A stretch of DNA of 64,000 nt. Origin: Eledone cirrhosa (taxonomy: Eukaryota). A program made the position numbers and the translations under genes. The stretch covers positions 19,778,001-19,842,000 of the forward strand of contig OZ024752.1 in the NCBI GenBank assembly GCA_964016885.1, given 5' to 3'. This document shows, one piece after another, positions 6,415 to 58,583 of this stretch (position 1 is the stretch's first letter; every line of letters starts with the position of its first letter). A model generated the notes under the pieces. That model was not told the origin of the DNA, did no database searches, and was given only the letters and a program-made list of their open reading frames with translations.

Positions 6415-6416
<2 letters not shown>

Positions 6417-6610
6417 CAAAGGAATTGTGGTAAGGAACCAGATGGACCATAACGCACCAGAGTACACAATACTTAGGGTAGTAGAGTGGGAAATAGGAAA
6501 AAGTATGACCCCGACGGCAGAGCTCAAGCCGTTTCGACGGCTATTTCTGGAGTCCAGAAATACCCGTCGAAACCGCTTGAGCTCTGCCGTCGGGGTCATA
6601 CTTTTTCCTA
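6415..6610 (-). mobile_element. Fold-back HHR mini-element family F1 (~115-bp palindrome plus ~80-bp tail) in (TA)n
   Basis: Palindrome at 6493-6611 contains the HHR 3' half GAAA-cggc-ttgagctct-gccg-TC-ggggtc. Tail is shared with 4-5 other copies. Confidence 0.85.
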
Positions 6611-7011
6611 TATATATATATATATATATGATAATAATGGAGCTGCGGCGTTGCAAATGGGTTACATATGAAAAAGTTTGTCCTTCATCAGTGGCCTTCC
6701 AACCGTCGTAGGCATTTCGTCGCTTTAAAGGCCATATACCTCAGGTTGGTGCGAGCAACGGCTAAAAAAAGTCGTTGGGACACGTAAATAAAGGGGACGC
6801 TAGGGTAAACAAACAAAATGGTTTAAGCAACAGTATATATATATATTTCGTTTCTGAATTTGTTTAGAAACATTCTTTATCTGAAAACGTGTGTTGAAAC
6901 CGATATTGTTATACTTTGGGATATTGTTATATGTTGTCAACACACACACAGAAACAAAATGGCGTAGGGCAGAACAAAGAAGAGGCACAAAAACAAAGAA
7001 AAGAATCCCCA

Positions 7012-7054
7012 GTCACTGAAGAAGTCACAGAATGTGTGACGAAAGAACTTTGAC
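7012..7054 (+). ncRNA. Minimal type I hammerhead ribozyme (Penelope-type)
   Basis: gtca-CTGAAGA-a-gtcaca-gaatg-tgtgac-GAAA-gaac-TT-tgac; stem I gtca/tgac; 6-bp stem II. Confidence 0.75.
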
Positions 7055-7270
7055 AATATATAAACAACTATCTGGTTGTGGAACCAACCAACCAACCAAC
7101 CGGAAATTTATAAATTCCTAAATTTATAAATTTATTATAATAAATTGAAGTGAAAGCAACTGGTGCGTGTGTTTCTTATTGGCAACATGACCCTCCCAAA
7201 GTATAACAATATATATATATATATATTAAGAAAGTAAAACAAAGAAGCCTTCAATACATCAAAAGTCTTT

Positions 7271-7316
7271 ATTAGCCGACAATGTTTCGTCCTATTAAGG
7301 ACTCATCAGGGCAATT
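7271..7316 (-). ncRNA. Minimal type I hammerhead ribozyme
   Basis: attgcc-CTGATGA-gtcct-taat-aggac-GAAA-cattg-TC-ggctaat; canonical core with a GUC cleavage triplet. Confidence 0.88.
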
Positions 7317-7586
7317 AAAACAACAAGAAGTAATGTCGGCAGATACAAGCCGGAAGCTCCGAAGAATATGGAGTGTACATACACTAAAGTATTGCAAGAT
7401 TATGGGTAAAAATATATAATAAAAATAAACACAGTCGGCTAATAAAGACTTTTGATGTATTGAAGGCTTCTTTGTTTTACTTTCTTAATTTTTCGGCTCT
7501 GTTTAACTACATTGAGCTATACCTTTTACTGTCATTTCTATAATACGAAGAGGGTGTTTAACTCCAACACGCTCCAGTATTTTAAC

Positions 7587-7645
<59 letters not shown>

Positions 7646-7807
7646 TTGCGAGGTCTTTGATATGAAATCGTGTGTCGAAACAAATATTGTTATACTTGGG
7701 GAGGGTCATATTGTTGTAATAATATTGCCAGAAATAATAAGTATAACAATATATATATATATAACAATATATATATCAGGATAGAACCAGTTTAAAACTA
7801 GTTAGAC

Positions 7808-7948
7808 CAGGCATGTCAAACAGCGCGAGCGTAATATAAAATAAAAAATATTAGTTGTAATGTGCGCAATTACTTGTCATGTGTGGCCCTCAGACAACAC
7901 GTGAGTGACTCATGTGGCCCTCGGGGGACCCTCAGTTTGACATGCCTG
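7808..7948. mobile_element. hAT-superfamily MITE
   Basis: 14-bp TIRs caggcatgtcaaac/gtttgacatgcctg and a perfect 8-bp TSD agttagac (7800-7807, 7949-7956). Confidence 0.93.
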
Positions 7949-8105
7949 AGTTAGACATTCACCATTACTCAACAAAGTACTCGGTACTTGGGATAGTAGA
8001 GTCTGGAACTAGCTGTTGGAATGGCAACACCTCAGCAATCGGCCCGACTCTGTATAGTGTGTGTGGGGGGGGGGGTAAACAAATCGCTTTCCGTAAGGAC
8101 GTGAC

Positions 8106-8196
8106 ATATCCCGTTACAACGTATCCCGTTACAACGTATCCCGTTACAACGTATCCCGTTACAACGTATCCCGTTACAACGTATCCCGTTACAACG
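8106..8196. repeat. 15-bp tandem repeat (tatcccgttacaacg) x6
   Basis: Direct periodicity. Confidence 0.95.
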
Positions 8197-8221
8197 TGTG
8201 TGAGAAGGAATAAATTGTACA

Positions 8222-8550
8222 ATCCTGAGGTTAACTTTGCCTTTCATCCTTACGGGGTCGATAAAATAAAGTACCAGTAATACACTGGGATAATTGCTGG
8301 CCTTGTGCCAAAAGCAGAAACAATTATATATCTATTGTTTTATTTTAAGGTTTTCACTATATGCTTTCTGATTTCGGCACAAAGCCAACAATTTTAATTA
8401 AATAGAACCCCAGTACATTACTGGTGCAACATTATATCGACCCCGTAAGGATGAAAGGCAAAGCTAACCACAGCGGAATTTGAACTCACAATGTAACTCT
8501 ATGCTGTAAAACATGTTGTCCGACGCTCTACCGAAACTGCCAATGCACCG
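8222..8550. mobile_element. Two SINE family A copies in opposite orientation (8222-8326 +, 8345-8550 -)
   Basis: Family consensus motifs on both strands. Confidence 0.85.
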
Positions 8551-8954
8551 CTCTTTGTCTTTGATACTGTACCGGGGGGTCTCAAAAAATTAGATATCAT
8601 GGCGTGTTCCCAGGGTTCTCACATTAAGATATATATTGAGTTAGTGTCATAATGTCGACAACTTTAGAGAAATAAATCTTATGTTGTTCAACAATAAGCC
8701 AGCTTAATCCTATCACCTTAGACTTTGTAGTCTCCTCGGATATTTACACCTCAAATGTTATCAATTCGTTTAAAATGCCCTGTATATAAAACAAGACAGC
8801 AAAACGATACAATACTCTAAAGATATACATTAGTTTGACGCTTGATATAGTAGGGAACGAGACATTTCGGACGTTAGTCCTTCATAAGAAGAAGAAGAAG
8901 AAGATTTTTGAGAAAAAAAACGTGTGTTCAGTTAGCCATTTGTGAATATATTTG

Positions 8955-10298
8955 CATTTAGCTGGTATCAAGACATCATAATTATTACATTTAGCTGGTA
9001 TCAGGATATCATAATTATTACATTTAGCTGGTATCAGGACATCATAATTATTACATTTAGCTGGTATCAGGACATCATAATTATTACATTTAGCTGGTAT
9101 CAGGACATCATAATTATTACATTTAGCTGGTATCAGGACATCATAATTATTACATTGAGCTGGTATCAAGACATCATAATTATTACATTTAGCTGGTATC
9201 AAGACATCATAATTATTACATTTAGCTGGTATCAGGACATCATAATTATTACATTGAGCTGGTATCAAGACATCATAATTATTACATTTAGCTGGTATCA
9301 AGACATCATAATTATTACATTTAGCTGGTATCAGGACATCATAATTATTACATTTAGCTGGTATCAGGACATCATAATTATTACATTTAGCTGGTATCAA
9401 GATATCATAATTATTACATTTAGCTGGTATCAGGACATCATAATTATTACATTTAGCTGGTATCAAGACATCATAATTATTACATTTAGCTGGTATCAAG
9501 ACATCATAATTATTACATTTAGCTGGTATCAGGACATCATAATTATTACATTTAGCTGGTATCAGGATATCATAATTATTACATTTAGCTGGTATCAGGA
9601 CATCATAATTATTACATTGAGCTGGTATCAAGACATCATAATTATTACATTTAGCTGGTATCAAGACATCATAATTATTACATTTAGCTGGTATCAGGAC
9701 ATCATAATTATTACATTTAGCTGGTATCACGACATCATAATTATTACATTTAGCTGGTATCAAGACATCATAATTATTACATTTAGCTGGTATCAGGACA
9801 TCATAATTATTACATTTAGCTGGTATCAGGACATCATAATTATTACATTTAGCTGGTATCAGGACATCATAATTATTACATTTAGCTGGTATCAGGACAT
9901 CATAATTATTACATTTAGCTGGTATCAGGACATCATAATTATTACATTGAGCTGGTATCAAGACATCATAATTATTACATTTAGCTGGTATCAAGACATC
10001 ATAATTATTACATTTAGCTGGTATCAGGACATCATAATTATTACATTTAGCTGGTATCAGGACATCATAATTATTACATTTAGCTGGTATCAGGACATCA
10101 TAATTATTACATTTAGCTGGTATCAGGACATCATAATTGTTACATTTAGCTGGTATCAGGACATCATAATTATTACATTGAGCTGGTATCAAGACATCAT
10201 AATTATTACATTGAGCTGGTATCAGGACATCATAATTATTACATTGAGCTGGTATCAGGACATCATAATTATTACATTGAGCTGGTATCATAATTATT
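8955..10298. repeat. 33-bp minisatellite (catttagctggtatcaggacatcataattatta), ~40 copies
   Basis: Direct periodicity; gives 11-aa repeat ORFs on both strands. Confidence 0.97.
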
Positions 10299-11020
10299 TC
10301 ATGCGAACATATATAAATTATGTTGTAATCGTTCAGACTGGGGGATCGGATTAAATAGAAACATGGCCAACGGAATTGTTCTCTGATTGGCCAGCATAAA
10401 TCTCGTATTGATGACATCTTTCAGTCTCGCTTTGATGTGATTTAGTATTTCTACAATTAGACACAAAATAAAATTGAAAAATCTTGTCAATAGGAGATAT
10501 GAGCTCACAGAAGGAACCCCACGTCTGTAATCTATCTATCTATTGTATGCATATATATGTGTGTGTATGTATATGTGCATGTACACATGTATGTGTGTGC
10601 GTGTATACATATATGTATGAATATATTTATATATCTACATGCATGCACACATATATATACACACATATATTTTATTCCCATTTCCTACGGTGGGAATTTG
10701 ACCTTTTTAGGGTTCAACTCGTCTTATCTCACACACACACACATATGTATATGTATATGTATATGTACATGTGTGTGTGTGCGTGTGTGTATAGGGCTTA
10801 AATGTCATAATTCTTTTGCTGTATTGTGTCTTTATAAAGCTAACCTTCAGCTGTAACTCGGAAACTTGTCACAGCAAATCTATAAAGTGTGTTTAAATAT
10901 ATTCTCTACAATTCTAGGAAACTTAGTTCGGAGTCGCTGGGAGGCAATTGAGTAACAAGTTTCTTTCTGTGTTGTACACACACACATACATACATACATA
11001 CAAACATACATACATGTATA

Positions 11021-11603
11021 CATGGTGGCTGCCAACTCGTTTTCGAGTACGGCCACTACTTTATATCCATGTAGGAGAACCCCTACCGATGCGCTGAACG
11101 AGTGTGACTTTTTAGTCCAGCTAGCGACTTCAAAACTCTGGTACAAACACTACATTTGTGACAATTATTGACACATAGTGCTGGGCCCATGGTACCATGT
11201 GACGACAAGTGCAGAGAGATCTCCAGATATAAAGCAATGCCTGTGCCGTGAAGCTTTTATACTGCACAAAGCCAGTCCCACTCTCTTAACCAAGATGATG
11301 TTTACCAAAAAGAAGAACAAGTCAACATCATTGGATACCATCAGGGTTGCAGGTGTTATATCAGAGTGTTCCTTCTCCTAGAATTCTGCCTTGACAAAGG
11401 CTAAGGGGTCATCTCTCCCGGTGATTTTGGATGGCCATTGACTCTTAAGAGCTCCTTTGCCCTTTGAAAGGTTTTGTTTTTAGTCCTGCAGGATGTCCAA
11501 AGTCACCTTGGTGGGGTTACCAGTTTAGTCGCCAACGACCCGACCATGGGACAGGTTGTACTGGGATACATGTTACCAGTAGCACCAACTGGTGACCTGA
11601 CAT
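11021..11603 (-). mobile_element. Non-autonomous RTE-derived retroelement (~610-bp family), near full-length
   Basis: Near-identical to five other copies. Carries an RTE 5'UTR-like motif (tctaggagaagga...ctctga) and a 3' hairpin actcg-aaaa-cgagt before a (TATG)n tail. Confidence 0.8.
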
Positions 11604-11623
11604 ATATACATACATACATACAT

Positions 11624-11897
11624 ACATAGTGGCTGCCAACTCGTTTTCGAGTACGGCCACTACTTTATATCCATGTAGGAGAACCCCTACCGATGCGCTG
11701 AACGAGTGTGACTTTTTAGACCAGCCAGCAACTTGAAAACTGGTACAAACACTACACTTGTGACAATTATTGACACATAGTGCTGGGCCCATGGTACCAT
11801 GTGACGACAAGTGCAGAGATATCTCCAGATATAAAGCAATGCCTGTGCCGTGAAGCTTTTATAGTGAGCAAAGGCACTGCACAAAGCCAGTCCCACA
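11624..11897 (-). mobile_element. Same RTE-derived family, 5'-truncated copy
   Basis: Retains the 3' end, lacks the 5' half, flanked by (TACA)n. Confidence 0.8.
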
Positions 11898-12090
11898 TAC
11901 ATACATACATGGTGGCTGCGTACATACATGCATGCATGCATGCATGCATACATGCATACATACATACATACATACATACATACATACGAATTGTATACAG
12001 TACTCTAAAGTACAGTACTTTAAAGTACAACTAAACGATACAGTACTCTAAAGACAAAGATTAATTTAATATTTAATATAGAAAGAAAAG

Positions 12091-12126
12091 AGTCAACATT
12101 TCGGGCGTTAGTCCTTCATCAGAAGA
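12091..12126 (-). ncRNA. Degenerate hammerhead ribozyme (family of 56913; another remnant at ~8860-8890)
   Basis: tctt-CTGATGA-a-ggactaacgccc-GAAA-tg-TT. Confidence 0.55.
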
Positions 12127-12182
12127 TAGAATGAGAAATAAAAGAAATAAAAAGAAAGAAGAAAAGAAAAAGACAAGAAATA

Positions 12183-13615
12183 TTGGTGTTGTTGGTAGTG
12201 GTGGTGGTGGTGTCGATAGTGGTGGTGTAGGTAGTGGTGGTGGTGTAGGTGGTGGTGGTGGTAGTGGTGGTGGTGGTAGTGGTGGTGGTGTAGGTAGTGG
12301 TGGTGGTGGTATTGGTGGTGTAGGTAGTGGTAGTGGTGTCGGTAGTGGTAGTGGTGGTGGTGTAGGTAGTGGTAGTGGTAGTGGTGGTGGTGTAGGTAGT
12401 GGTAGTGGTAGTGGGGTAGGTAGTGGTGTAGGTAGGGGTAGTGGTGTTGGTGTAGGTAGTGGTAGTGGTGTAGGTAGTGGTGGTGGTGGTGTAGGTAGTG
12501 GTGGTGGTGGTGTAGGTGGTGGTGGTGGTGGTGTAGGTAGTGGTGATGGTGGTGTAGGTAGTGGTGATGGTGGTGTAGGTAGTGGTGTGGGTAGTGGTGG
12601 TATAGGTAGTGGTGGTGGTGTAGGTAGTGGTGGTATAGGTAGTGGTGGTGGTAGTAGTGGTGGTAGTGGTGTAGGTGGTGTAGGTAGTGGTAGTGGTGTA
12701 TGTAGTGGTAGTGGTAGTGGTGGTGTAGCACCAAAGAGTTGATAGGTGCAGTGTAGGGTGTGGACTGTAAATCTGCAGGAAATTGTTGTGGGATAGATGT
12801 GTAATATGAGAGACTGACATTGGTGACGTTGGTGGCATTAACAGTAGCTAGAGTGGCGGTGGTGGGGAGGTGGGGACAGTAATGGTGGCGATAGGGGTGG
12901 TGGTGGTGGTGGGAGGAGGTGGTGATAGTAATGGTGGCGATACGGGTGGTGGTGGTGGTGGTGGTGGTCATCATCAGAGTGGCGGTGGGGACAGTAATGG
13001 TGGCGATAGGGGTGGTGGTGGTGGGGGGAGGTGGTGATAGTAATGGTGGCGATACGGGTGGTGGTGGTGGTGGTGGTGGTCATCATCAGAGTGGCGGTGG
13101 TGGGGAGGTGGGGACAGTAATGGTGGCGATAGGGGTGGTGGTGGTGGGGGGGAGGTGGTGATAGTAATGGTGGCGATACGGGTGGTGGTGGTGGTGGTCA
13201 TCATCAGAGTGGCGGTGGTGGGGAGGTGGGGACAGTAATGGTGGCGATAGGGGTGGTGGTGGTGGTGGGAGGAGGTGGTGATAGTAATGGTGGCGATACG
13301 GGTGGTGGTGGTGGTCATCATCAGAGTGGCGGTGGTGGGGAGGTGGTGACAGTAATGGTGGCGATAGGGGTGGTGGTGGTGGTGGTGGTGGTGGTCATCA
13401 TCAGAGTGGCGGTGGTGGGGAGGTGGGGACAGTAATGGTGGCGATACGGGTGGTGGTGGGGTGGGGAGGAGGGGTGATTGTAATGATATTGGAGGTTGCA
13501 GAAGTTATGCTGTTTCTGGTTGTAGTAGTAGTAGTAGTATTAGTTGTTGTTGTTCTTGTAATAGCAGTAGTAGTAGCAGTAGTAGTAGTAGTATTAGTTG
13601 TTGTAGTAACAGCAG

Positions 13616-13647
<32 letters not shown>

Positions 13648-13690
13648 ACACCAGCAGCAGCAGTAGTAGTAGTAGTAGTAGTTGTAGTTG
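12183..13690. repeat. (GGT)n/(AGT)n-derived simple repeats, with a compound repeat of roughly 100-120-bp units at 12850-13460
   Basis: Trinucleotide periodicity and recurring gtcatcatcagagtggcggtgg units. Confidence 0.9.
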
Positions 13691-14149
13691 CAGTATGTGT
13701 CTGTATGTATGTATCTAACTATGTATGTGTGTGTGTGTGGGTATGTATGTATGGATGTATGTATGTGTGAGTGTGTGGGTATGTATGGATGTATGTATGT
13801 ATGTGTGTGTGGGTATGTATGTATGTATGTATGTATGTATGTATGTGTGGGTATGTATGTATATGTGTAGGATGTATGTGTGTGTGGGTATGTATGTATG
13901 TATGTATGTATGTATGCGTGGGTATGTATGTACATGTGTAGGATGTATGTATGTATGTGTGGGTATGTATGTATATGTGTAGGATGTATGTATGTGTGGG
14001 TATGTATGTACATGTGTAGGATGTATGTATGTATGTGTGGGTATGTATGTATATGTGTAGGATGTATGTATGTATGTGTATGTATGTATGTATGTATGTA
14101 TGTATGTATGTATGTATGTATGTATGTATTATGTATGTATGTATGTTAT

Positions 14150-15534: not shown

Positions 15535-15650
15535 TATAGTGATTCTTTGCCCAACGGATAAGCTTATACCGTTTCGATAGCAAATGAGATATTGAATTTC
15601 TCATTAGTTAGCGAAACAGTATAAGCTTAACCTTAGTGCAAAAAATCCTT
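15535..15650. repeat. Fold-back palindrome centred on an HHR stem II (3' half GAAA-cag-TA)
   Basis: ataagcttataccgtttcg...cgaaacagtataagctta inverted arms around the hairpin aatgagatat-tga-atttctcatt. Confidence 0.6.
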
Positions 15651-16980: not shown

Positions 16981-17056
<76 letters not shown>

Positions 17057-17684: not shown

Positions 17685-17731
<47 letters not shown>

Positions 17732-17734
<3 letters not shown>

Positions 17735-17831
17735 GGTGTCGTCCAAAAATGTATACACACTTCAACAACATTCTAATAAATATTTCCTGTACAGGTAATC
17801 AAAGTGAATATAGATTTTTTGTGACACCCTG
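17732..17831. mobile_element. Tc1/mariner-type MITE
   Basis: TA|cagggtgtc...gacaccctg|TA: TIRs with a TA TSD. Confidence 0.8.
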
Positions 17832-17849
17832 TAAATATATATATATATA

Positions 17850-18042
17850 GAAAAAAGTATGACCCCGACGGCAGAGCTCAAGCCGTATCGACGGCTATTT
17901 CTGGACACGAAATAGCCGTTGAAACGGCTTGATCTCTGCCGTCGGGGTCATACTTTTTCCTATTTCCCACCCTACTACCCTAAGTATTGAGTACTCTGGT
18001 GCGTTATGGTCCATCTGGTTCCTTACCACAATTTCTTTGTTA
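17850..18042 (+). mobile_element. Fold-back HHR mini-element F1
   Basis: Palindrome followed by the tail ...ggtccatctggttccttaccacaatttctttgtt(ta)n. Confidence 0.85.
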
Positions 18043-18264
18043 TATATATATATTAATCTCCCCCTGGTCGAGATGAAATTTGGTCGTTTTGACTACTGCT
18101 ATTTATAGTGGTAGTAGACTGACCTCCCTGCCTCTGCCGTCTGTCTTTGCACACGGCACTGGACAGAATTGCTTCCACATCAATCATTCTCATCTCGGGA
18201 ACAGTTTTGAATAGCGCCAGTCGTAATTTGAACTCGGGAATTTTATATTCTCCGAGTGAAAAGA

Positions 18265-18351
18265 ACCTTCTGACGAGAGTTTATCTTTTCAATGGAAGCC
18301 CGCAAGGACTGTCCATTTATTTTTGAGACTCGAAACCGATTCGGTAAAGGT
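18265..18351 (+). ncRNA. Intact type I hammerhead ribozyme with extended stem II
   Basis: acctt-CTGACGA-gagttt...agactc-GAAA-ccg-att-cgg-TA-aaggt. All three helices pair; predicted GUA cleavage after 18346. Confidence 0.9.
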
Positions 18352-22401: not shown

Positions 22402-22453
<52 letters not shown>

Positions 22454-22455
<2 letters not shown>

Positions 22456-22648
22456 CGAAGAAGGTGTGGTAAGGAACCAGATGGACCATAACGCATCAGA
22501 GTACTCAATACGTAGGGTAGTAGAGTGGGTAATAGGATAATGTTCAAGACCCCGACGGCAGAGCTGAAGCCGTTTCGACGGCTATTTCTGTCCAGAAATA
22601 GCCGTCGAAACGGCTTGAACTCTGCCGTCGGGGTCTTGAACATTTTCA
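22454..22648 (-). mobile_element. Fold-back HHR mini-element F1
   Basis: Same tail; palindrome at 22538-22645. Confidence 0.85.
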
Positions 22649-22709
22649 TATATATATATACACACACATACATATACACACAGACATACACATATATGCA
22701 CACATAGAT

Positions 22710-22745
<36 letters not shown>

Positions 22746-22748
<3 letters not shown>

Positions 22749-22946
22749 GGAGTAGGTAAGACCCCGACGGCTGAGCTCAAGCCGTTTCGACGGCTAATTC
22801 TGTACTAATAGTACCGAATTAGCCGTCGAAATGGCTTGAGCTCAGCCGTCGGGGTCTTACTTACTCCTATTACCCACTCTACTACCCTAAGTATTGAGTA
22901 CTTTGGTGCGTTATGGTCCACCTGGTTCCTTACCACTTTTCCCTCG

Positions 22947-22947
<1 letters not shown>
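22746..22947 (+). mobile_element. Fold-back HHR mini-element F1
   Basis: Palindrome at 22746-22870 with a variant stem II, then the tail. Confidence 0.85.
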
Positions 22948-22988
<41 letters not shown>

Positions 22989-23228
22989 AAGGTATATATT
23001 GAGTTAGAAACTCAAAATAGTCTCTTACAATAAAATAGCTCTAGGAAAGAGATATTATATTTGAATATAAAGGAAAAACGAACACAGATATATATGTGTT
23101 CAAATCGTAAGGGACCAGATTCGCTAAGGTGAAAAGAATACTACCTATAGACAATTGGGTTTGCTTGTCTCAATTTAAGAAAAAAAATCAAGAAAATAAA
23201 TACAAACCGGAATTGTGGTAACTACCAA

Positions 23229-23308
23229 TCACCCAGACAGCTTTGGGTATACTGTTTCGCAAAATTAATTGTGAAGAGGAATATCGATTCTTGCTCATCA
23301 GTGGGTGA
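23229..23308 (-). ncRNA. Intact type I hammerhead ribozyme inside a ~680-bp inverted duplication (23050-23730)
   Basis: tcaccca-CTGATGA-gcaaga...ttttgc-GAAA-cag-tatacccaaag-ctg-TC-tgggtga; 7-bp stem I. Confidence 0.9.
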
Positions 23309-24097
23309 AGAATTATTATCCTGATCACTTCTAAGTATATTAAAAAACTGAATAGTGTGCGTATATATAATAACGCACATGGTATCTGAACTTAGCGTGT
23401 CTCACACCACTAAAAATAGCAGCCAGGTTTACTCGACATTTGAATTAGCTCAACAAATTAACGGAGCCGAATGTGCGTTATTATATATACGCACACTATT
23501 TAGTTTTTTAATATACTTAGAAGTGACCAGGATAATAATTCTTCACCAATAGTTACCACAATTCCGGTTTGTATTTATTTTCTTGATTTAATTTTAAATT
23601 GAGCCTGGCAAACCCTATTGTCTATAGGTAGTATTCTTTTCACCTTAGCGAATCTGGTCCCTTGCGATTTGAACACATATATGTATATGTCTGTGTTCGT
23701 TTTTCTTTTATATTCAATTATATATATATATATACACCTCGGATCTTTACCATCCACGCGCACACACCAACACCCATACAGGGGCTATACACACATACAC
23801 TCCACCCCAACACACAAAATGGTTTTTCAAACCCACGATCACATACACTCCCTTCCACCCAGACTCTCACACTAACATCTACACATACACACACACCTTA
23901 CCTTCCGCCATCCCCGCTCGGACTCTAATTTTGTTGCTTTCCCTCCTCCCTCTCTCTCCCTCCACCCACCCCTTACACACTACCCACCCTGCTTTTTATA
24001 TTTTTTTATATATTTTTTAATTCTGTTTCTATTTTTCCCGTCCTTTCATGTTTTTCCTATTAACCCCCCCCCCCTCACTCTCTGAGTTCCTCCCTAC

Positions 24098-24257: not shown

Positions 24258-25977
24258 TAGTTTCAACTTTTTGGCACAAGGCCAGCAATTACCCCAGTAC
24301 ATTACTGGTGCTTTATTTTGTCGACCCCCGTAAGGATGAAAAGCAAAGTTAACGTCGGCGAATTTGAACTCAGAACGCAAAGGGCCATAACTCTATGCTG
24401 CAAACCATGGTGTCTGACGCTCTACCGATTCTGCCAATCCACGACCAAAAAATAAATAAAGAAGAATAATAAAGATTCTGTAGGAGAGTGGATATGATGG
24501 GAGGGGGGTGGTTCTAGTGTTAGAATAGTTTTATAATGGGAGGGGGATTGTATAAAGTAGAATGTCTATAGTTACAACAGTAACTATAACAACCAGACAG
24601 TTACAATAATCACAACATTGGCAAAAGCTAATAGTGCTGGGACGTGCACTTAGACTCAGAAATAAAGAGAAAAACACACGCACATATACACACACATTAT
24701 ATATACACGCACATATACACACAACGCACATATACACTCACATTATATATATACACGCACATATACACACACATTATATATATATATACACGCACATACA
24801 CACACACATTATATATACACGCACATATACACACAACGCACATATACACACACATTATATATATATATATATATATATACACGCACATATACACACATAT
24901 ACACGCACATATACACACACATTATATATATATATACACGCACATATACACACACATTATATATACACGCACATATACACACACATTATATATATATACA
25001 CGCACATATACACACATATTTACACGCACATATACACAGACGCACATATATATATACGCATATATACACACACGCACACATACACACACATTATATATAC
25101 ACGCACATATACACACACATTATATATATATACACGCAAATATACACAACGCACATATACACACACGTTATATATATATATACACGCACATATGCACACA
25201 TATATACACGCACATATACACACACATATATACACGCACATATACACACATATATACACGCACATATACACAGACGCACATATACACACACATTATATAT
25301 ATATGTAAGGTAATGGATTGGCAGTATCGGTAGAGGGTCGGACGCCATGCTTTGACGCATAGAGTTACGGCCCTTTCCATTCTGAGTTCAAATCCCGCCG
25401 AGGTTAACTTTGCCTTTCATCCTTACAGGGTCGATAAAATAAAGTACCAGTAATGTGCTGGGTAATTGCTGGCCTTGTGCCAAAAGTAGAAACAATTATA
25501 TATATAATGTGTGTGTATATGTGCGTGTATATATAATGTGTGTGTATATGTGCGTGTTTATATATAGTGTGTGTATATGTGCGTGTATATATATGTGTGT
25601 ATATGTGCGTGGGTGTATATGTGCGTGCATATATATATATATATATAATTGTTTCTGCTTTTGGCACAAGGCCAGCAAATACCCAGTATATTACTGGTAC
25701 TTTATTTCATCGACCTCGTAAGGATGAAAGGCAAAGTTAACCACGGCGGGTTTTGAACTCGATTGGCAAGGGCCGTAACTCTATGCGTCAAAGCATGGCG
25801 TCCGACCCCCTACCGATACTGCCATTCCACAGCCATTATATATATATATATATGTCCCTTTACGATCTGAGTTCAAATCCCGCCGAGGTTAACTTTGCCT
25901 TTCATCCTTACGGGGTCGATAAAATAAAGTACCAGTAATGCACTGGGTATTGCTGGCCTTGTGCCTAAAGTAGAAAC

Positions 25978-29618: not shown

Positions 29619-29656
<38 letters not shown>

Positions 29657-29659
29657 AAC

Positions 29660-29794
29660 ACACCAATATGAGTCAGGACCCCGACGGCAGAGTTCTTGCC
29701 GTTTCAACAGGTAGTTCCACACTCTACTACCCCTAGTATCGATTACTCTGGTGAGTAATGGTCTAACAAGTTTCTTACTGAATCCATCTTGATT

Positions 29795-38583: not shown

Positions 38584-38831
38584 AAACGATAAGTTCTTGT
38601 TTTGGGATATGTCAATATTTATAAAACAATTTTTGTATTTTATCTGATGAGTGCGTACCAAAATTTTGGTACCCTTGAAATATATATAATAAAATAAATA
38701 TCTTTATAAAACCATATTTATTTTATTATATATATTTCAAGGGTACCAAAATTTTGGTACGCACTCATCAGATAAAATACAAAAATTGTTTTATAAATAT
38801 TGACATATCCCAAAACAAGAACTTATCGTTT
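38584..38831. repeat. Perfect ~118-bp inverted repeat with an HHR in each arm (38636-38696 +, 38719-38779 -)
   Basis: tattttat-CTGATGA-gtgcgtaccaaaattttggtaccctt-GAAA-tatata-TA-ataaaata and its exact reverse complement. Confidence 0.85.
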
Positions 38832-39785: not shown

Positions 39786-40878
39786 TTATGAATTACATTT
39801 TGCCTAGTTATCTGTTTAATAAAAAAAATTGTGTCGAAACTATTGTAAAGATTAAATATTTGAAGAAGTTCTGTCTGCATGATATATAACGGGCTTCTGC
39901 AGGTTCCGGCTATCAAATTCCAGTCAGAAGTCTTTAGTCAACCCGAAGCTATAGTAGAAGAGCCATGCTGCGAGACCAAGTAGTTGTGGAGGGAACTGCT
40001 TGGCCATACAACCATGGCCGCACCTATAGATATGGAATAGGAAGGAATCGATTGATCCCAGACCTCATTCGTTTCTCGAGTGAGGTGGAACTCGTTCAAT
40101 TGGACCATGGAATCAATGTTTCCTTCAGTCTTTCCATTGCTGATACTGTCTTCCAGTCGCAACTCCTGGCAGAAAGAGCAACATGAAATACAGTGTGTTT
40201 TTCAAGGACATAACGCATCACCTGGTCCAGGAATCGAACTCACAACCTCATGATTTCTAATCCAAGTCTCTAACCACTGAACCACGCACCTTATGGAATA
40301 CATTAAGAAATGTTGTTATGAATTCAACATGCAAACAAAAGTTCAGGTAAAAGGTTTCTGAACAAGTCTTAATAAAAATTGGTGGATTCTCTATCACTTT
40401 CCATCAATTAAACGTCCAATTAACGTGTAAGTAATTAATTATTCCACAGACACGTGTACCCTTACCATAATTACCAAGCAGGATCACTGTAACACTATAT
40501 GAGACAAGGTTGGACTTCTGAATTTCACGTACAATTCACCTGACAGACTTCTATACAGTCAATTTCATAGGTAGATAATTATAATTATAATCGGAAAGAA
40601 TGAAACGAAATTTCATTTCTCACTCTTAGTACGGCTGTTACTTAAATATAAGTATGTATACGTACATACATATATGTATACAGACGTACAGTAGTATGTA
40701 TATATATATATACATACATGCATATATATATATGTACGTATGGATTCACCGGACATTTATTATAATGCTCGGTGTGTTTCCTCCTGTTGCATTGTATGCC
40801 TACGCCATCTTTTATAATTATAATTATAATTATAAAAGATGGCGTAGGCATACAGTGCAACGGGGGGAAACATAATAG

Positions 40879-42434: not shown

Positions 42435-42475
42435 CGTTGCTGACGATAGCTAATAAGCTTGAAACTAGTACAGCG
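42435..42475 (+). ncRNA. Minimal type I hammerhead ribozyme
   Basis: cgttg-CTGACGA-tagct-aata-agctt-GAAA-ctag-TA-cagcg; palindromic stem III ACTAGT. Confidence 0.85.
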
Positions 42476-43913: not shown

Positions 43914-44022
43914 TCTTTGCGGCCATATTGCTCTGAAAACACCGGTCTCCAAAGTTAAGCAACGTCCAGCCTAGTTAGTACTTAGATGGGTGGCCACTTG
44001 GGAACCCTAGGAACTGTAAGCA
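43914..44022 (+). pseudogene. 5S rRNA-derived sequence (pseudogene or SINE3 head)
   Basis: cggccatattgctctgaaaacaccggtctcc..aagttaagcaacgtccagcctagttagtacttagatgggtggccacttgggaac matches eukaryotic 5S with A/C boxes and an internal deletion. Confidence 0.85.
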
Positions 44023-49794: not shown

Positions 49795-49825
<31 letters not shown>

Positions 49826-50717: not shown

Positions 50718-50976
50718 CGATGAGATTTTGATGACTCACGAAGCTTCGTGTAAATTTCTTTAAATGAATGTATTTCTGTATGTACGGTGAATCCCGGAGA
50801 TTGCCGACTTTCCATAATAAGTTAAGAGACTTAAAACGAAATAACAGTCAAACATTTGTCTGTGGAGGCACCAGCAAGAATCTTCACTGATTCATTAAGA
50901 AACTTCTAACTTAGTCAATACCTTAGATTCCAGTAGCGACTCTGAAACTTTCAAGCAGTCTTCCCATTGCAATATA

Positions 50977-51188
50977 ATGCTTTCTGATTTAGGCACAAGA
51001 CCAGCAATTTTAGGGGAGGGGAAAGTCGATTAAATCGATCCCAGTGTATTACTGGTACTTTATTTTATCGACCCCGTAAGGATGAAAGACAAAGTTAACT
51101 TCGCCGGCATTTGAATTCAGAATATAAAGGGACGTAACTATATGCCAGAAAGGGTGATGTCCGACGCTCTACTGATTCTGCCAATCCA
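50977..51188 (-). mobile_element. SINE family A
   Basis: Family consensus. Confidence 0.88.
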
Positions 51189-51767
51189 ATGCAATATATA
51201 CAATAACCAATGGTAATACAAAATACTACAAATGTGGAACCACTGCTTATCTATATTTCTATCTTGATTGTTATCATTACAGCTGAAATTCTTCGTGCGA
51301 ACTCTCGTAGAAATGTTTCTCTCTTCTCTGATCTAATCTCCTCTCATTTCTGATATAATCTCCTCTCCTCTCCTCTCTGATCTCCTCTCCTCTCTGATCT
51401 AATCTCCTCTCTGATCTGATATAATCTCCTCTCCTCTCTGATATAATCTCCCCTCCTCCTTTCTCCTCTTGTTTTTCTTTCAACCATCGTTTTGCCATTT
51501 CGTTTGAAACTTTTTACTTATATTTTCTTTTCTCCCATGTTCGTATTAAATCTATTCCGTGTTAAATCTAATTCCCACATTCCCACATACCCACATTCCC
51601 ACATACCAGTAAACCACAATACAGTTACATTACATTAGTGCAGCTTTCTTACTACGGAAATTTGATATCTGCCTTTCTTCAGCTGCTTTCATTGGTTTGG
51701 GATAAAAAGTTGAATCGACATAAACATGGTTATCACCACTTCTGATGTGGCTAACTACAAATAATAG

Positions 51768-52262
51768 CGGGGGGGGGGGGGTATGTGGAGACGGGGGGGG
51801 GCTAAGCGGAGATGGGTGGTATATGGCGATGGGGGGTATATGGAGATGGGGGTATGTGGAGACGGGGGGGTAAGCGGAGATGGGGGGTTTGTGGAGACGG
51901 GGGGTATGTGGAGACGGGGGGTAAGCGGAGACGGGGGGTATGTGGAGACGGGGGGTAAGCGGAGATGGGAGGTATATGGAGACGGGGGTTAAGCGGAGAT
52001 GGGGGGTATGTGGAGACGGGGGGGTAAGCGGAGATGGGAGGTATGTGGAGATGGGGGGGGGTATGTGGAGACGGGGTGTAAGCGGAGATGGGGGGTATAT
52101 GGCGATGGGGGGGTATATGGAGATGGGGGTATGTGGAGATGGGGGGTAAGCGGAGATGGGGGAATAAGTGGAGATGGGGGATAAATGGAGATAGGGGGGT
52201 ATGTGGAGATGGGGGTATGTGGAATAAGTGGGGACTGGGGGAAGCAATGACAGGGGGGGGGG
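51768..52262 (+). repeat. G-rich ~17-19-bp minisatellite (G-run array)
   Basis: Alternating tatgtggagacgggggg / taagcggagatggggg units. Confidence 0.9.
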
Positions 52263-53145
52263 AGGATGGGTAATTTTTCTAGTTTGTCTCAGTTGATTTT
52301 TAAAAACCAGAATTAGTTGTTTAGTTTACATATTGAGACCCCAACCCTTCCTATTTATTTTATAACCTATGGGGTTTCAATTAATGTACTTCTATTGTCA
52401 TGTATTTTAATGTACAAAGAGAATTAATTGTCGCAGAAATGCTACGACTTAAAATAAAATTTCGCCGGAGAAAGATTAGCAAAATTTAATAAGCGCGGGG
52501 GCGGGGTTCTGAAAAATGAATAAGCGAGTGAGGGGACGAATAAATTATATCGAATCATTGATACAGTAGCTATATTGAAATATTTCAATACTGATGGGGA
52601 GAAGGGACGAAAATCTTGAAGTGGTTTAAAAATTGAAGTGGTTTAAAAATTTCAACGCCCTGTGTGAAATCCTTTGAAGTCCACACCAGGCCACAATTTG
52701 GGGGCAGGAGGAGAAGTTGATTAAATCGACTCCTAGTGCATTACTGGTTCCTTACTTTATCAACCCAATAAACAGGAATGGCAAATCTAAACTCCAATAT
52801 TGTGTAGGTATCTAAATTGAGAGTGGTCATTTGTGGCTCTTTCACTGAAATAAAGGAGGAGAAAGGGTAACCATACGAATCCCAGACTCTGATATAACAG
52901 AGCACAGTAATAAACATTACATGTAATTCAACGATCTGAGATTGGTGGGAGGTCTGTAGTCTCCTCATAGTAAAAGGACCCCCGTCGAGCTGGGAGCTAA
53001 TAGAGATCCAACAGCGTGATGCCGCCCTCCACATAAAACTCGTTCAACGAGGATTATATTAAACAGCGCCTGTAATCTAGGGTTGCAATAAATTAAGGAG
53101 TCATTTGATAAGTCAGAGACTTTAGTTGATTAGTATTGAGTTTCA

Positions 53146-53205
<60 letters not shown>

Positions 53206-53304
53206 AACTTTGTGAGTGCGTTTGTAAATACACACAAATTCACTCATACATACACTCATACATACACACAATCACACACACATACAAATTGATAGTAATA
53301 TAGA

Positions 53305-53492
53305 TAATTGTTTCTACTTTTTGGCACAAGGCCAGCTATTACCCAGTATATTACTGGTACTTTATTTTATCGACCCCGTAAGGATGAAAGGCAAAGTCAA
53401 CCTCGGCGGGATTTGAACTCAGATCGTAAAGGGACGTAACTATACTGGAAAGCATGGCGTCCAACCCTCTACCGATACTGCCAATCCACCGC
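53305..53492 (-). mobile_element. SINE family A
   Basis: Family consensus. Confidence 0.9.
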
Positions 53493-53494
53493 AT

Positions 53495-53785
53495 GAAAGT
53501 AGTTTATCTCGGAGCAACAAAAGGCAGATTAACTCCCATTTAGAAGGATACGTTTTTGCAATCTAGGAAGAGGAAATAATGAAATACCTGATGCAGGAAA
53601 GAGAGATACAGGTAAAACATAGATGCTGACAACAGATGCTGGCTATAACCAGCAGGGATGTCACCCATATCACAAGCTGCTGTTTGAAGATGTTATTGTG
53701 ATACTATCTACCTATTAGGTATGATGTCGGGACCAGAGACACTATACAATGTAATCTGTGGAAAAGATAACCCTGGGAATATACA
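53495..53785 (+). mobile_element. R4/Dong-like non-LTR retrotransposon fragment (zinc-finger region)
   Basis: Decayed SHLEGYVFAI*EEEIMKYLMQERE..DNRCWL..DVTHITSCCLKMLL*YYLPIRYDV. Confidence 0.72.
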
Positions 53786-54501
53786 GATCAAAACTTGCAG
53801 TGATGAGGACATAGGCTTACAGTGAGGGGGGTAGTGAGGGGGGTAGAGTGAGAGAGACGGGGGTGATAGAGACGGGGGGAGAGTGAGAAAGACGGGAGTG
53901 TGATAGAGACGGGGAGGGTGAGATGGGGGGTGATAGAGACGGGGGGATGATATGGGAGGTGAGAGAGACGGGGGTGTGATAGAGACGGGGGGAGTGAGAG
54001 AGACGGGGGTGATAGAGACGGGGGGAGAGTGAGAGAGGGGGGAGTGAGAGGGGTGTGTGAGTGAGAGAGAGAGGTCCGTGAGTGAGAGAGAGAGAGAGGT
54101 CCGTGAGTGAGAGAGAGAGGGGCTGTGATTGAAAGAGAAGGGGTGTGAGTGAGAGAGAGGGTGTGTGAGTGAAAGAGACGGGGGGTGTTTGACATGATAC
54201 TATATCAATATATACTCATTGTATATTTATGTGTGTATATATATAAATATACACGCATACACACAAATATACAATGAGTATATATTGACATAGTTAACAT
54301 GTCAAATATATATATATATATAATTAGAATTTTATTTCTAGCCCTAGCACAGCTGACACATAAATGTAAATATGCGCACGTACACACACACACGCACATA
54401 TATGTGTGTGTGTGTATATATATATATATTAAATGTATAGGAAAAACAAACACTGGGCGTGAAGTAAAGAAAAAAGTGAAGACTTTTATCAAATATATAT
54501 A

Positions 54502-54809
54502 TGTTCTTTTTGGTAAATATCATCTTGGTTAAGAGAGTGGGACTGGCTTTGTGCAGTGCCTTTGTTCACTATAAAAGCTTCACGGCACAGGCATTGCTTT
54601 ATATCTGGAGATGTCTCTGCACTTGTCGTCACATGGTACCATGGGCCCAGCACTATGTGTTAATAATTGTCACAAGTGTAGTGTTTGTACCAGAGTTTTC
54701 AAGTCGCTGGCTGGACTAAAAAGTAACACTTGTTCAGCGCATCGCTAGGAGTTCTCCTACATGGATATAAAGTAGTGGCCGTACTCGAAAACGAGTTGGC
54801 AGCCACCAT
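54502..54809 (+). mobile_element. RTE-derived non-autonomous element, 5'-truncated
   Basis: 3' half of the family, ending gcagccaccat-atgtatgt. Confidence 0.8.
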
Positions 54810-55420
54810 ATGTATGTATATATATATACTGCTTATTATTGTGTATGATTATATGATTTTGCATACATATACGTGGGAAGTTGGGGGTTGGGAGATGAAG
54901 GTTGTCTAAGTAATAGGTGATGTCTAGTAATGGAATGTAAAATAAGGAAATCGCTTATCTTTGATGATGCAAACTGCTTCGTGGTTTCCGTGACTGTTTC
55001 TGGGAGAAAATAGGGGACTACTTTATAAATGCCGGAAACATGAAATATAGTCCAACAGTCCAACAGTCCAACAGTCCAACAGTCGGGTGTTGCTAATACA
55101 ACTTCTAGCTACAGATGAATCATTTTCAATTTCAAATGAACGTTGAATTATTAAATTATCTAGTTGAAAGCTGCTTGACAAGACTCGCTTTCAAATCGAT
55201 ATCGATATTATTATGGTTGCTATTATTATCGTTATTATTATTGCTGTTGTTTACCAAATACGAAATGGCATCATAAAGCATCGTAAGGGCCATATCCGGA
55301 AGTACAGGATATCAGGAGTGATAATAGAGATATCACAACCAATCAAAATTGTGATATAGTCAATGAAATATATCCAACACGTGTGTATGTATGTGAATAC
55401 AAACACACACACACACACAA

Positions 55421-55484
<64 letters not shown>

Positions 55485-55611
55485 ATATATAATAATAATA
55501 ATTATGGAGATAAAACGAAGAAGTCTCGATAAGATCCTGTAAATGGGTGGAAAGCAGCGATTATTTGCTTAAACTTTAATCTAATATATAATATATATAT
55601 ATATATATATA

Positions 55612-56092
55612 TTGTTATAATTTGGGAGGGTCGTGCTGCTAATAAAAACATACGCACCTGTTGGTTTTCACTTCAATTTCTGGTTGGTTGGTTCGATAAC
55701 CGGATGGTTGTTTATATATTGCCAAAGCTCTTTCGTCACACATTCTGTGACCTCCTCAGTGACTAGCTTTTTATTTTGTGTGTCTCCTTTGTTCTATCCT
55801 ATAACATCTTGTTTTTGTGTGTTGTGTGCAGGACAGAACAAAGGAGAGACACAAAATAAACCCAGTCACTGAGGAGGTCACAGAATGTGCGACGAAAGAG
55901 CTTTGGCATATATATAAACAACCATCCGGTTATCGAACCAACCAACCAACCAGAAATTTATAAATTGAAATGAAAACCAACAGGTGCGTGTGTTTTTATT
56001 AGCAGCACGACCCTCCCAAAGTGTAACAATATCTGTTTCAACACACGTTTTCAGATAAGAAATCATGCAAAACAAATTTAAAAACGAAGTAC
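55612..56092. mobile_element. Head-to-head inverted duplication of an HHR element (HHRs at 55721-55763 - and 55865-55907 +)
   Basis: gtca-CTGAGGA-g-gtcaca-gaatg-tg(t/c)gac-GAAA-gagc-TT-tggc in both arms. Confidence 0.85.
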
Positions 56093-56912
56093 ACACACAC
56101 GCACACTCACATATATAAGAGAGTATTGAAGTTTGCTTGAAGCATTGTGGAACAATAAGTAAATATCTTTATGTCGTTTGGAAGCCTCGACAATGCAAAT
56201 GGGTAAATCTCCGGGTAACAAGGTCCGGTGGTGGAGAGAGAGATGTAAGTGGGTGTACGCTGAGATGCGTGGTGTGTATAAGATGTGTGAGATGTGTAGA
56301 ATGAAGGGAAGAGTATAAAGGATAAAAATAAAAATAACAACACAAGAGAGAGTTACCTTGGGAGAGATTTAATAGTCCCTATATATTTCGGATTCACATC
56401 CATCAACCGGGGTTTTTTCCGGGGTGGGGGAAAAGGTTGTCTGTTGGACAAGTCCGGATCGCGTCTTTCGCTGTTTGTTGATTTGAATATATATATATAT
56501 ATATATAACAGTTTAAAAGAGTACTCAATACGTTATTATAGAAATGACTTCTACGGGACTGTTTCGTTCGTAAGAAATCCTCCTGATGATTTCTTACGAA
56601 ATACTGAGAATATGTTGTGATAGGTTACACAAATGCACTAAATCTGATGTAGTAGCTACAGAGAGTTACTATCCATAGAGCTGGAGCTATACCTTCCGGC
56701 CCTCCGAGGCCCAATTGTTTTTAATCTTTAATAAGATTTCAGGTAGACGCGCTCCATCATCCACTTTTCTAAATAATAAATCATACACAAACCGCCAGCA
56801 CCAACAGTTTTGCAAGAGATGTCAACATGAATGGACCAGTTATTTTTATCTAACGACATTTTTTCCAATTCCAACCCGCCCGTCCCCTCAATCTATCTTA
56901 TTTCTCATTCTT

Positions 56913-56948
56913 TCTTCTGATGAAGGACTAGCATCCGAAACGTTAAGA
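56913..56948 (+). ncRNA. Minimal type I hammerhead ribozyme (Penelope pLTR-type)
   Basis: tctt-CTGATGA-a-gga-ctagca-tcc-GAAA-cg-TT-aaga; palindromic AACGTT. The downstream tail recurs inverted at 58795-58891. Confidence 0.82.
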
Positions 56949-57042
56949 CCCTCTTCCTGCTATATCAAGCGTTAACCTAATATATCCCTTCCATGTACTG
57001 TACCAATTGTGTTGTTATTTCTGTTTACTTTTTACATATATG

Positions 57043-57431
57043 CGGTGGATTGGCAGTATCGGTAGAGGGTTGGATGCCATGCTTTCCAGCATAGTTACGT
57101 CCCTTTACCATCTGAGTTCAAATCCCGCCGAGGTTGACTTTGCCTTTCATCCTTACGGGGTCGATAAAATAAAGTACCAGTAATGCACTGGGTAACTGCT
57201 GGCCTTGTGCCTAAAATAGAAACAATTATCTATAAAAGGCAGGTGGTGGATTGGCAGTATCGGTAGAGGGTCGGCGGCCATGCTTTGTAGCACAGTTACG
57301 TCCCTTTACGGACTGAGTTCAAATCCCGCCGAGGTTAACTTTGCCTTTCATCTTTACGGGGTCGATAAAATAAAGTACCAATAATACACTGGGATAATTG
57401 CTGGCCTTGTGTCAAAAAGTAGAAACAATTA
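57043..57431 (+). mobile_element. Two tandem SINE family A copies
   Basis: Family consensus; the second copy is flanked by duplicated tatctataaaaggcag. Confidence 0.9.
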
Positions 57432-58376
57432 TCTATAAAAGGCAGATTGTTGTTGTTGTGTGTCTGCATGTTTCATGTCTATACATTTGCATAATTTCAA
57501 ACCGATTCGACTCAAAGTCTGTAAGAATGTTGTAAATGGTCTAATTTAGGTCAACGACTATTTATTTATTTCAAACTCACCCACAATTAGGGAAATAATC
57601 GATAAAACTAAATACATGACGCTTTACCCCTCTAATACAATCTGATTACCTCTCTCTACTCCTCTTAAAATTCGATAAAACTACATACATGCTGCAACTT
57701 TCTCTTATATACGCTTAAACTTACAAACTTCCTTTAGGAACGCCGAAGAAAGAAGAGAGAAATAAATGGAGGGAGGGAGAGAGAGAGAAGAGAGAGTGAG
57801 GGAGAGAGAGAGAACGTTTGTTTTTGAGTGTGGAACGGTCAAACATTTATTTACTTCAATGACAAAGAGAACTTATTACAAACGAAACAACAATTATTCA
57901 AAAGCAACAGATAAATTTATTCAACAACAAAAATAGTGATAAATCTTTTTTTAAAACATCTCTCAACGAACGTGGAAGAAAGAAGTATCAGTTTATTTAC
58001 TATACACAATAATATCCTCTATGAGGTCACTAAACCTGCTAGAAACAGCAGCTAACTCTCCCCCATATCACACCCCTCCATACTGTCTTAAATTTAGAAA
58101 ACACACAGACAACCACGCAGAACAACTCCATCGCAGCTCTGTTGTTCGGCTGGCATCGTCTACGCACGTGTTGCGCAAGTACTGTGAAACAATAAATTTC
58201 AACACTTCTTTGCACAGAGATAATATTCATAGGCGAAACTACAATTGTCACTGCTGGCGCAGCTCCTGCTTCAGCAGTCCAGGTCTGCAATTCATTCACC
58301 CAGTGCTGCCATAAAATGGATGGTGCAACCTAACTTTGGTAACTAACCCCGAGCAACGCCGGGCTTTAATGCTAAT
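57229..58376 (+). mobile_element. Probable non-autonomous Helitron-like element
   Basis: 5' a|TCtataaaaggcag...gtgtctg...aaccgattcgactcaaa; 3' hairpin cccgagcaacgccggg followed by a gcta terminus. Confidence 0.55.
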
Positions 58377-58389
58377 ATATATATATATA

Positions 58390-58583
58390 AGAAAATGTTT
58401 AACCCCGACGGCACAGCTCAAGCCGTTTCGACGGCTATTTCTGGACTATTCTGTCCAGAATTAGCCGTCGAAACGGCTTGAACTCGGCCGTCGGGGTTTA
58501 AAATTTCCCTATTACTCACTCTATGGTATTGAGTACTCTGGTCCGTTATGGTCCATCTGGTTCCTTACCACACTTTCTTCGTT
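58390..58583 (+). mobile_element. Fold-back HHR mini-element F1, followed directly by SINE A (58583-58766)
   Basis: Palindrome at 58393-58506 plus tail. Confidence 0.85.

Follow-up and report, generated by a model that had tools for sequence, protein, structure and literature searches.

The DNA analysed here, called the window below, is a stretch of 64,000 nucleotides (nt) from Eledone cirrhosa (assembly GCA_964016885.1, contig OZ024752.1, positions 19,778,001 to 19,842,000, forward strand). It consists of microsatellite-rich animal DNA, and some of its repeats we take to be reminiscent of cephalopod families. The subject of this report is F1, a family of short insertions made of a palindrome with a tail. 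A preliminary description had placed five copies at 6415, 17850, 22454, 22746 and 58390 and a relative at 29660, each copy with a palindrome of about 110-120 base pairs (bp) and a tail of about 80 bp. BLAST and a profile search of the window both recovered the five copies, which are mutually 79-94% identical (E 1e-46 to 1e-84, copy against copy). Their palindromes measure 109-124 nt and their tails, present on one side only, 71-79 nt, close to the sizes first given. The profile search also returned two diverged relatives, one at 29655-29793 (the relative at 29660) and one, not listed before, at 7961 within 7777-8054. Oriented with the tail at the 3' end, a full copy begins with a TA repeat and the inverted arm, continues through the centre into the tail-bearing arm and the tail, and closes with another TA repeat. 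The features are as follows.

6415..6610, minus strand: F1 copy flanked by a TA array on either side; tail (6415-6492), then the tail-bearing arm (6493-6551), a centre of 1 nt (6552) and the inverted arm (6553-6610).
17850..18041, plus strand: F1 copy that served as the reference stretch for the reads; its inverted arm (17850-17906) and tail-bearing arm (17909-17963) meet at a spacer of 7 nt (17902-17908), and the tail occupies 17964-18041.
17921..17949, plus strand: hammerhead-like 3' half in the tail-bearing arm; GAAA, a 4-bp stem with a 9-nt loop, UC (putative cut after 17943), GGGGTC; putative ribozyme origin.
17961..17963, plus strand: site 1, the fixed point at which every inverted arm ends on its outer side (TAT, then TA repeat); it lies 20 nt past the putative cut.
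18039..18041, plus strand: site 2, where the tail gives way to the TA repeat, 98 nt past the putative cut.
22454..22649, minus strand: F1 copy; tail (22454-22531) followed by the tail-bearing arm (22532-22590), a centre of 2 nt and the inverted arm (22593-22649).
22747..22949, plus strand: F1 copy with its inverted arm at 22747-22807, its tail-bearing arm at 22809-22870 and a centre of 1 nt (22808) between them; tail 22871-22949; each arm extends to the fixed inner end.
58390..58583, plus strand: F1 copy; inverted arm 58390-58446 and tail-bearing arm 58453-58512, separated by a spacer of 6 nt; the tail has lost 7 nt and ends against another repeat instead of a TA array.
29655..29793, plus strand: diverged relative without a direct arm, its inverted arm running straight into the tail; arm end at a TA array, tail end at a TG repeat.
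7777..8054, minus strand: second diverged relative; same arm-to-tail junction as 29655; tail interrupted at 7808-7948 by a 141-nt insert that has inverted repeats and an 8-bp duplication.
15541..15647, strand not set: old palindrome, possibly of a related family; its left arm carries GAAA-stem-UH, CTGANGA is absent and the spacer measures 9 nt; weak likeness to F1 (E 0.43 by BLAST, E 0.39 by profile).

The outer ends of F1 lie in TA repeats. A TA array was found no more than 6 nt from 11 of the 14 outer ends of the seven copies, compared with 5.85% of window positions, which confirms the earlier placement of the family at or within (TA)n. The three ends that have no array nearby are the tail of 58390, the tail of 29660 and the outer end of 7961. 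In all five full copies the inverted arm ends at one place, site 1, and site 2, where the tail ends, lies 78 nt beyond it. An inverted, 5'-truncated copy adjoining at the 5' end, a Penelope-type trait, is present in all seven window copies; a partial head-to-tail tandem (pseudo-long terminal repeat, pseudo-LTR) was found in none of the seven. A short reading frame at the tail end (MVHLVPYH) is open in the five full copies and stopped in 29660, and was not used as evidence.

Reads and contigs of four runs from three studies (X1, X6, X7 and X8) were aligned to 17848-18044 at 80% likeness, giving 16,797 contigs from X1, 18,318 reads from X8, 432 contigs from X6 and 5 contigs from X7. X1 is possibly the window's own sample. 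X8 comes from another sample and study under the same species label; it is a reduced-representation library and probably over-samples one subfamily, as suggested by a depth step near 17913. The results refer to 24 of 452 rows of loose ends and 15 of 84 rows of joints, 12 of these on the same strand. Site 1 recurs in these data, with loose ends behind 17963 running into TA repeat in 632 X8 reads, 80 X1 contigs and 6 X6 contigs. The inner end of the arm is fixed as well, at TAGTCCAG: loose ends behind 17906 start with TA (154 X1 contigs and 710 X8 reads), loose ends before 17909 finish in TAGTCCA (923 X8 reads and one X7 contig), and the neighbours beyond are unrelated AT-rich letters (agreement 0.45-0.55). 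An abundant subfamily with CTGACTC between GGGGTC and site 1 was also observed in reads on 17955 (1553 X8 reads, 111 X1 contigs); it has no full copy in the window, and 29660 shares that stretch.

The outer arms had been described as differing between copies yet mirroring each other within each copy. This is borne out overall. Arm identity is 0.928 within copies and 0.861 between them, the outer 16-18 columns show 0.902 against 0.713, and seven arm columns are mirrored within, and private to, a single copy. Two exceptions count against the claim: the arms of 6415 and 17850 match each other across copies (51-53 of 55) as well as they match within a copy, and 58390 has one arm nearer to 6415 (0.91) than to its own partner (0.85). 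Both arms of a copy thus derive from one subfamily template, but mirroring alone is no proof that the palindrome is rebuilt at each insertion. The centres and junctions speak to that point. Centre spacers are 1, 7, 2, 1 and 6 nt, and the centres differ in all five copies, even between 6415 and 17850; where the arms differ there, the tail-bearing arm is the shorter one in four of the five. Variants of the centre at 17907-17908 are carried by 37, 39 and 47 X1 contigs, in addition to indels. Among the 12 same-strand joints, nine depart from the inverted arm at 17899-17908; the landing points range from 17919 to 18002, eight of them within the tail, and in eight of the 12 the inverted arm is joined straight to the tail with no direct arm. 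Since five of five centres differ and many different junctions occur in the reads, the palindrome is probably rebuilt at each insertion, as the preliminary description had proposed. A fold-back artefact of the assembly was ruled out, as the arms differ by 4-15% and both raw reads and contigs bridge the centre.

The two diverged relatives bear on how such palindromes form. In both 29655 and 7961 the inverted arm runs straight into the tail; the joint lies some 9 nt beyond site 1 and has an overlap of 3 nt. The relative at 29660 thus keeps its place as a relative of F1 but is not a palindrome. This junction, at 17972, recurs in both relatives and in reads, and its overlap (ACT) could make it a hotspot. 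The mechanism originally put forward was a master element with an intact hammerhead and a long native stem II, of which one complementary DNA (cDNA) folds back at stem II, copies itself and replaces the CTGANGA strand. It draws on a half-hammerhead motif that is above chance (see below), on junctions that gather where snap-back predicts, and on arms that match within copies. Other families in the window also hold intact cores with a long stem or loop II and a similar stem III (18270, 23301, 42843), and palindromic junctions of rotifer Penelope elements have been read as self-priming (PMC3846280; this and later statements about published elements refer to the accessible parts of the sources). 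However, snap-back from an intact master was not borne out. The relatives at 29655 and 7961 do not support it because they offer no direct arm for a folded-back cDNA to copy, and an inverted arm lacking a direct arm is seen in two of the seven window copies as well as in the eight joints mentioned above. Loss at the centre mostly affects the tail arm (four of five), and spacers of 1, 1 and 2 nt in three of five centres would be too short for an ordinary fold-back loop. The unrelated AT-rich letters beyond the inner end reveal no common master sequence. A master reading GACCCC-CTGANGA-GACGGCT would diverge at 17886-17892 (near 17890), and no such row occurs among the 24 of 452 loose-end rows, the smallest of which hold 556 X8 reads and 32 X1 contigs, so that a rarer master could escape notice. 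Snap-back also leaves unexplained why the inverted arm always stops at site 1. We therefore regard it as improbable.

Two further explanations treat F1 as a DNA element. It could be a unit resembling a miniature inverted-repeat transposable element (MITE), in which the palindrome arose once per subfamily and spreads whole while hairpin repair keeps the arms alike; the likeness of 6415 and 17850 across copies and the recurrent junction at 17972 would suit such a unit. The centres of 6415 and 17850 nonetheless differ, as do all five, and several centre variants exist in X1. The inverted repeats are not at both ends either, since the tail follows one arm, and two copies are one-armed. This makes a MITE-like unit very unlikely, and the earlier view that the palindrome looks like a MITE without being one, and is a retroelement-type insertion, is supported; MITE finders will mislabel such palindromes. 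Alternatively, the inner end could be the terminus of a DNA element read the other way, either a Helitron 3' end or a TAG...CTA end (presumably of Academ type), and the window copies would be end-to-end fusions moved through TA repeats. On the opposite strand there is indeed a 6-bp hairpin (-6.7 kcal/mol as DNA) 9 nt before CTA, kept in 75 of 84 cells, and the DNA that comes after CTA in reads is AT-rich and unrelated; a 3' hairpin and CTRR characterize canonical Helitrons (PMC8969392). Yet the letter after CTA varies (T, A and G in reads), and in the predicted fold of 29660 the hairpin is not formed at that place. No common 5' end, 5'-TC end or second terminus was found beyond the TA array at 11 ends examined, apart from 22454 and 22746, which face each other across one microsatellite but are different subfamilies. 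Moreover, all seven window copies would have to be fusions, and four hammerhead-core families (see below) have the same layout without any such terminus. We consider a DNA-element end unlikely, to the same degree as snap-back. An origin as a short interspersed element (SINE) derived from transfer RNA (tRNA) was ruled out: ARAGORN found none in the seven copies at thresholds of 95% and 85%, and there was no tRNA in the Rfam matches listed. A mid-element 11-mer resembling an A box occurs on the opposite strand in three of the seven copies, and B-box matches are scattered.

The arm of F1 resembles the 3' half of a hammerhead ribozyme. The motif Y-GAAA, a stem of 4 bp or longer and UH, a single pattern chosen after the arms had been inspected, occurs in five of seven arms tested, compared with 3-91 of 5000 shuffles per arm (0.06-1.8%), and in 9 of 1122 window tiles. 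In a comparison of 14 arms (10 from F1, two from its relatives and two from the weakly related palindrome at 15541), 12 retain GAAA. For stem III, 65 of 70 cells are paired and two double changes occur, a result reached by 9 of 500 shuffles and a weak test because the rows are related. The preliminary identification of the arm as a hammerhead 3' half therefore holds as far as this resemblance goes and is weakened by a competing hairpin that is nearly as well kept. Judged from the letters, hammerhead ancestry of the arm is fairly likely, and the half-hammerhead is probably a relic of a Penelope pseudo-LTR. The centre had been equated with stem II; pairing does exist there, but it follows from the palindrome itself, so that this remains an interpretation, and the only pairing partners for stems I and II in F1 are the inverted copy itself. 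A type II order, with the stem I hairpin after the cut and then CUGANGA, was ruled out, as no CTGANGA follows. With only the hammerhead 3' half present, the copies do not appear to be ribozymes as they stand, in line with their earlier description as ribozyme-dead.

From the observed anatomy, with its three fixed ends, variety of junctions, TA flanks and abundance, we infer an RNA intermediate and its polarity, an enzyme and priming on two strands. F1 is, on balance, probably a high-copy family of short Penelope-type insertions, formed from a template of about 135 nt with two start sites by head-to-head joining on two target strands. The template would be an RNA that runs to site 2 from a fixed 5' end, AGTCCAG, 18 nt before GAAA, so that it would carry only the hammerhead 3' half. 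A Penelope-type reverse transcriptase and endonuclease, supplied in trans, would nick both strands of a TA repeat and prime two cDNAs, at site 1 and at site 2, 78 nt apart, both extending toward the 5' end. The short cDNA of 58 nt would usually be completed, whereas the 135-nt cDNA would often stop early, and the cDNA ends would be joined head to head through short overlaps or a few extra bases. Completion of both would yield the palindrome with its one-sided tail, and a long cDNA stopping in the tail would yield the form seen at 29655 and 7961. A full palindrome would require two rounds of copying of the arm, either on two RNAs or on a single RNA successively. The fixed 5' end, which comes with half a hammerhead, could be the transcription start of an autonomous element, whose 3' repeat might hold a complete hammerhead, or the start of an independent small RNA, and we presume a resemblance to an initiator.

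Several observations weigh against Penelope-type insertion from such a template. The CTGANGA strand is lacking, as first described, from all seven copies, in which no complete hammerhead was found either, and Rfam gave no hammerhead or tRNA among the best 150 of 383 matches. For 22440-23640, Rfam likewise gave no hammerhead or tRNA in 54 of 54 matches, which says little because a complete-looking core at 23301 also lies there unlisted. The competing hairpin, which holds GAAA in its loop, pairs in 75 of 84 cells and forms in the predicted fold of three of four copies. A Pfam search of 120 of the window's 194 open frames found no reverse transcriptase or GIY-YIG domain, its six weak matches in five frames all falling below curated cut-offs. 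The F1 tail is 78 nt, compared with a published 30-40 bp. Most of the joints considered are carried by one or two contigs, have a short side of 21-29 nt and are flagged weak; only two have several read starts (88 reads with 5 starts and 16 reads with 4 starts). Finally, the unpaired inner end is seen in about 1630 X8 reads and the bridged centre in about 270-370 (approximately 5:1), although all seven window copies are head to head. Hairpin bias in the libraries, or partners behind a longer spacer, could be the source of this excess. Membership among Penelope-like elements is accordingly proposed rather than proven, because no partner open reading frame is linked to F1 and the hammerhead is incomplete.

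A more specific form of this proposal, which we hold only tentatively and think rather unlikely, is that F1 is a stand-alone, SINE-like passenger of Penelope: an independent RNA, about 135 nt long, that starts at a fixed 5' end of its own, lacks a tandem array and a tRNA head, and carries just the substrate half of a hammerhead. The half-hammerhead may then be cut in trans, or its palindromic loop may pair two RNAs so that a dimeric enzyme primes both target strands. If so, the many F1 junctions would be a genome-scale record of two-strand priming. Metagenome scans with a 20-mer from the arm and a 23-mer from the tail gave no matches with either.

Four other families in the window carry CTGANGA...GAAA cores. 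In each, the arms are head to head and their cores point outward; one of the arms stops at a TA array, and the other continues into a tail.

7225-7590: head-to-head hammerhead-core insertion, tail about 100 nt.
22987-23727 (palindrome 23052-23727): head-to-head hammerhead-core insertion, tail about 65 nt.
59177-59720 (59244): head-to-head hammerhead-core insertion, tail about 55 nt.
55609-56032: head-to-head hammerhead-core insertion, tail end not defined.

In the insertion at 7225 the inverted arm carries the whole core and the tail arm begins near the cut site. Across the four families, junctions lie upstream of the core, within CTGATGA or, on just one arm, at the cut site. Because they sit at such different places, folding at stem II does not appear to be a general rule, while two TA-repeat ends and a one-sided tail do.

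Further copies and cores related to these families were observed, and repeats with a complete-looking core are numerous in the window. An unfolded relative of 59244 lies at 42440 and one of 55609 at 7016. In the 23052-23727 palindrome, one arm holds a complete-looking hammerhead (23224-23301) and the other (23547-23550) lacks nearly that exact segment of about 77 nt, excised at stem I. Solo complete-looking cores lie at 18270, 42843 and 56917 (plus strand) and at 12122 and 33514 (minus strand), with related ends at 6310-6378 and 55535-55590; several solo cores stop at a TA array, 15-25 nt past the position of the cut. Three of the seven F1 tail ends (6379-6415, 22948-22986, 7767-7776) face, across the TA array, the end of another hammerhead-core family, as if several families pile into one microsatellite. 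At 38584-38831, a perfect inverted repeat of 118 nt with a 12-nt spacer has CTGATGA...GAAA pointing inward, unlike the others, and may represent transposon ends instead. Palindromes also occur at 40775-40872 and 4796-4923, one without a spacer inside a 59244/42440 family end and one beside TA repeats.

Several neighbouring elements are of other kinds. The 141-nt insert at 7808-7948 in the tail of the 7961 relative has short terminal inverted repeats and an 8-bp duplication, and is presumably hAT-like. Inside the TA array next to the copy at 17850, an element of about 100 nt (17731-17833) has inverted ends flanked by TA, and we take it to be Tc1/mariner-like. A SINE-like repeat at 25314-25829 consists of two inverted copies around a microsatellite, both ends lying in TA repeats, and a third copy of it (58584-58765) is fused to the tail of the F1 copy at 58390. 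The window further contains a stretch resembling 5S ribosomal RNA (43915-44022; 61.7 bits, above the Rfam gathering score) and a frame of 135 codons (63087-63491) that resembles the remnant of an open reading frame of a long interspersed element, with a weak DUF6451 match below the cut-off.

The insertion anatomy of F1 is already known from Penelope-like elements. Penelope-like elements have an inverted 5'-truncated copy, a one-sided tail of 30-40 bp and a bias toward (TA)n, and the way in which they form the inverted copies and the tail is described as unresolved (PMC8557442). With endonuclease-bearing (EN+) families (Penelope/Poseidon, Neptune, Nematis, Naiad and Hydra; Craig et al. 2021, PMC8557442; Arkhipova et al. 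2013, PMC3846280), F1 shares the head-to-head inverted copy, the palindromic junction, the one-sided extension, TA-repeat targets and the lack of a visible target duplication. Unlike them, F1 has no open reading frame, an insert of only about 200 nt, a 78-nt tail and a fixed inner end, and no partner element was found. The Penelope terminal repeat holds a complete hammerhead (absent in Naiads), whereas F1 has the 3' half only. An earlier description of F1, or of a SINE-like Penelope passenger with half a hammerhead, was not found in a literature search to which Repbase and Dfam were external. The accessible part of a recent octopus repeat annotation (PMC13282606) contains nothing on hammerheads or palindromes, and the accessible parts of PMC6765202, PMC12801901 and PMC10045372 contain nothing decisive for F1.

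Penelope pseudo-LTRs contain opposite-strand hammerhead pairs at distances of 100-700 bp (Cervera and de la Pena 2014, PMC4209133). F1 shares with these pseudo-LTRs GAAA, a stem III with a palindromic loop, UH and close opposite-strand pairs, but the CUGANGA strand is missing from it, as are the 5' sides of both stem I and stem II, its stem III is longer than in metazoan minimal motifs, and it has the competing hairpin. Non-LTR retrozymes (Li, Clavereau and Pollet 2026, bioRxiv 10.64898/2026.07.22.740005) are similarly short, non-coding, tied to Penelope terminal repeats and dispersed as single units. Retrozymes, however, are head-to-tail tandems with complete hammerheads, and F1, as checked in the window, is head to head with none. 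The closest parallel to the proposed priming is Poseidon PAc of Anolis carolinensis (Frangieh et al. 2024, PMC11167929), in which two start sites of the reverse transcriptase bound the tail, both strands are cut and extended in vitro, and a dimer is predicted. F1 likewise has two start points that bound the tail, both 3' of the hammerhead position, and an AT-rich target, and both strands would be extended. PAc is autonomous and has a complete, protein-assisted hammerhead; the F1 sites, 20 and 98 nt after the putative cut, are known from sequence alone. Different junctions are to be expected from self-priming (PMC3846280) and from two internal start sites on both target strands (PMC11167929). 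Because F1 is abundant and short and has three fixed ends, a single read can cover an entire insertion, and counting can separate the two models. The partial junction data presented here favour two cDNAs.

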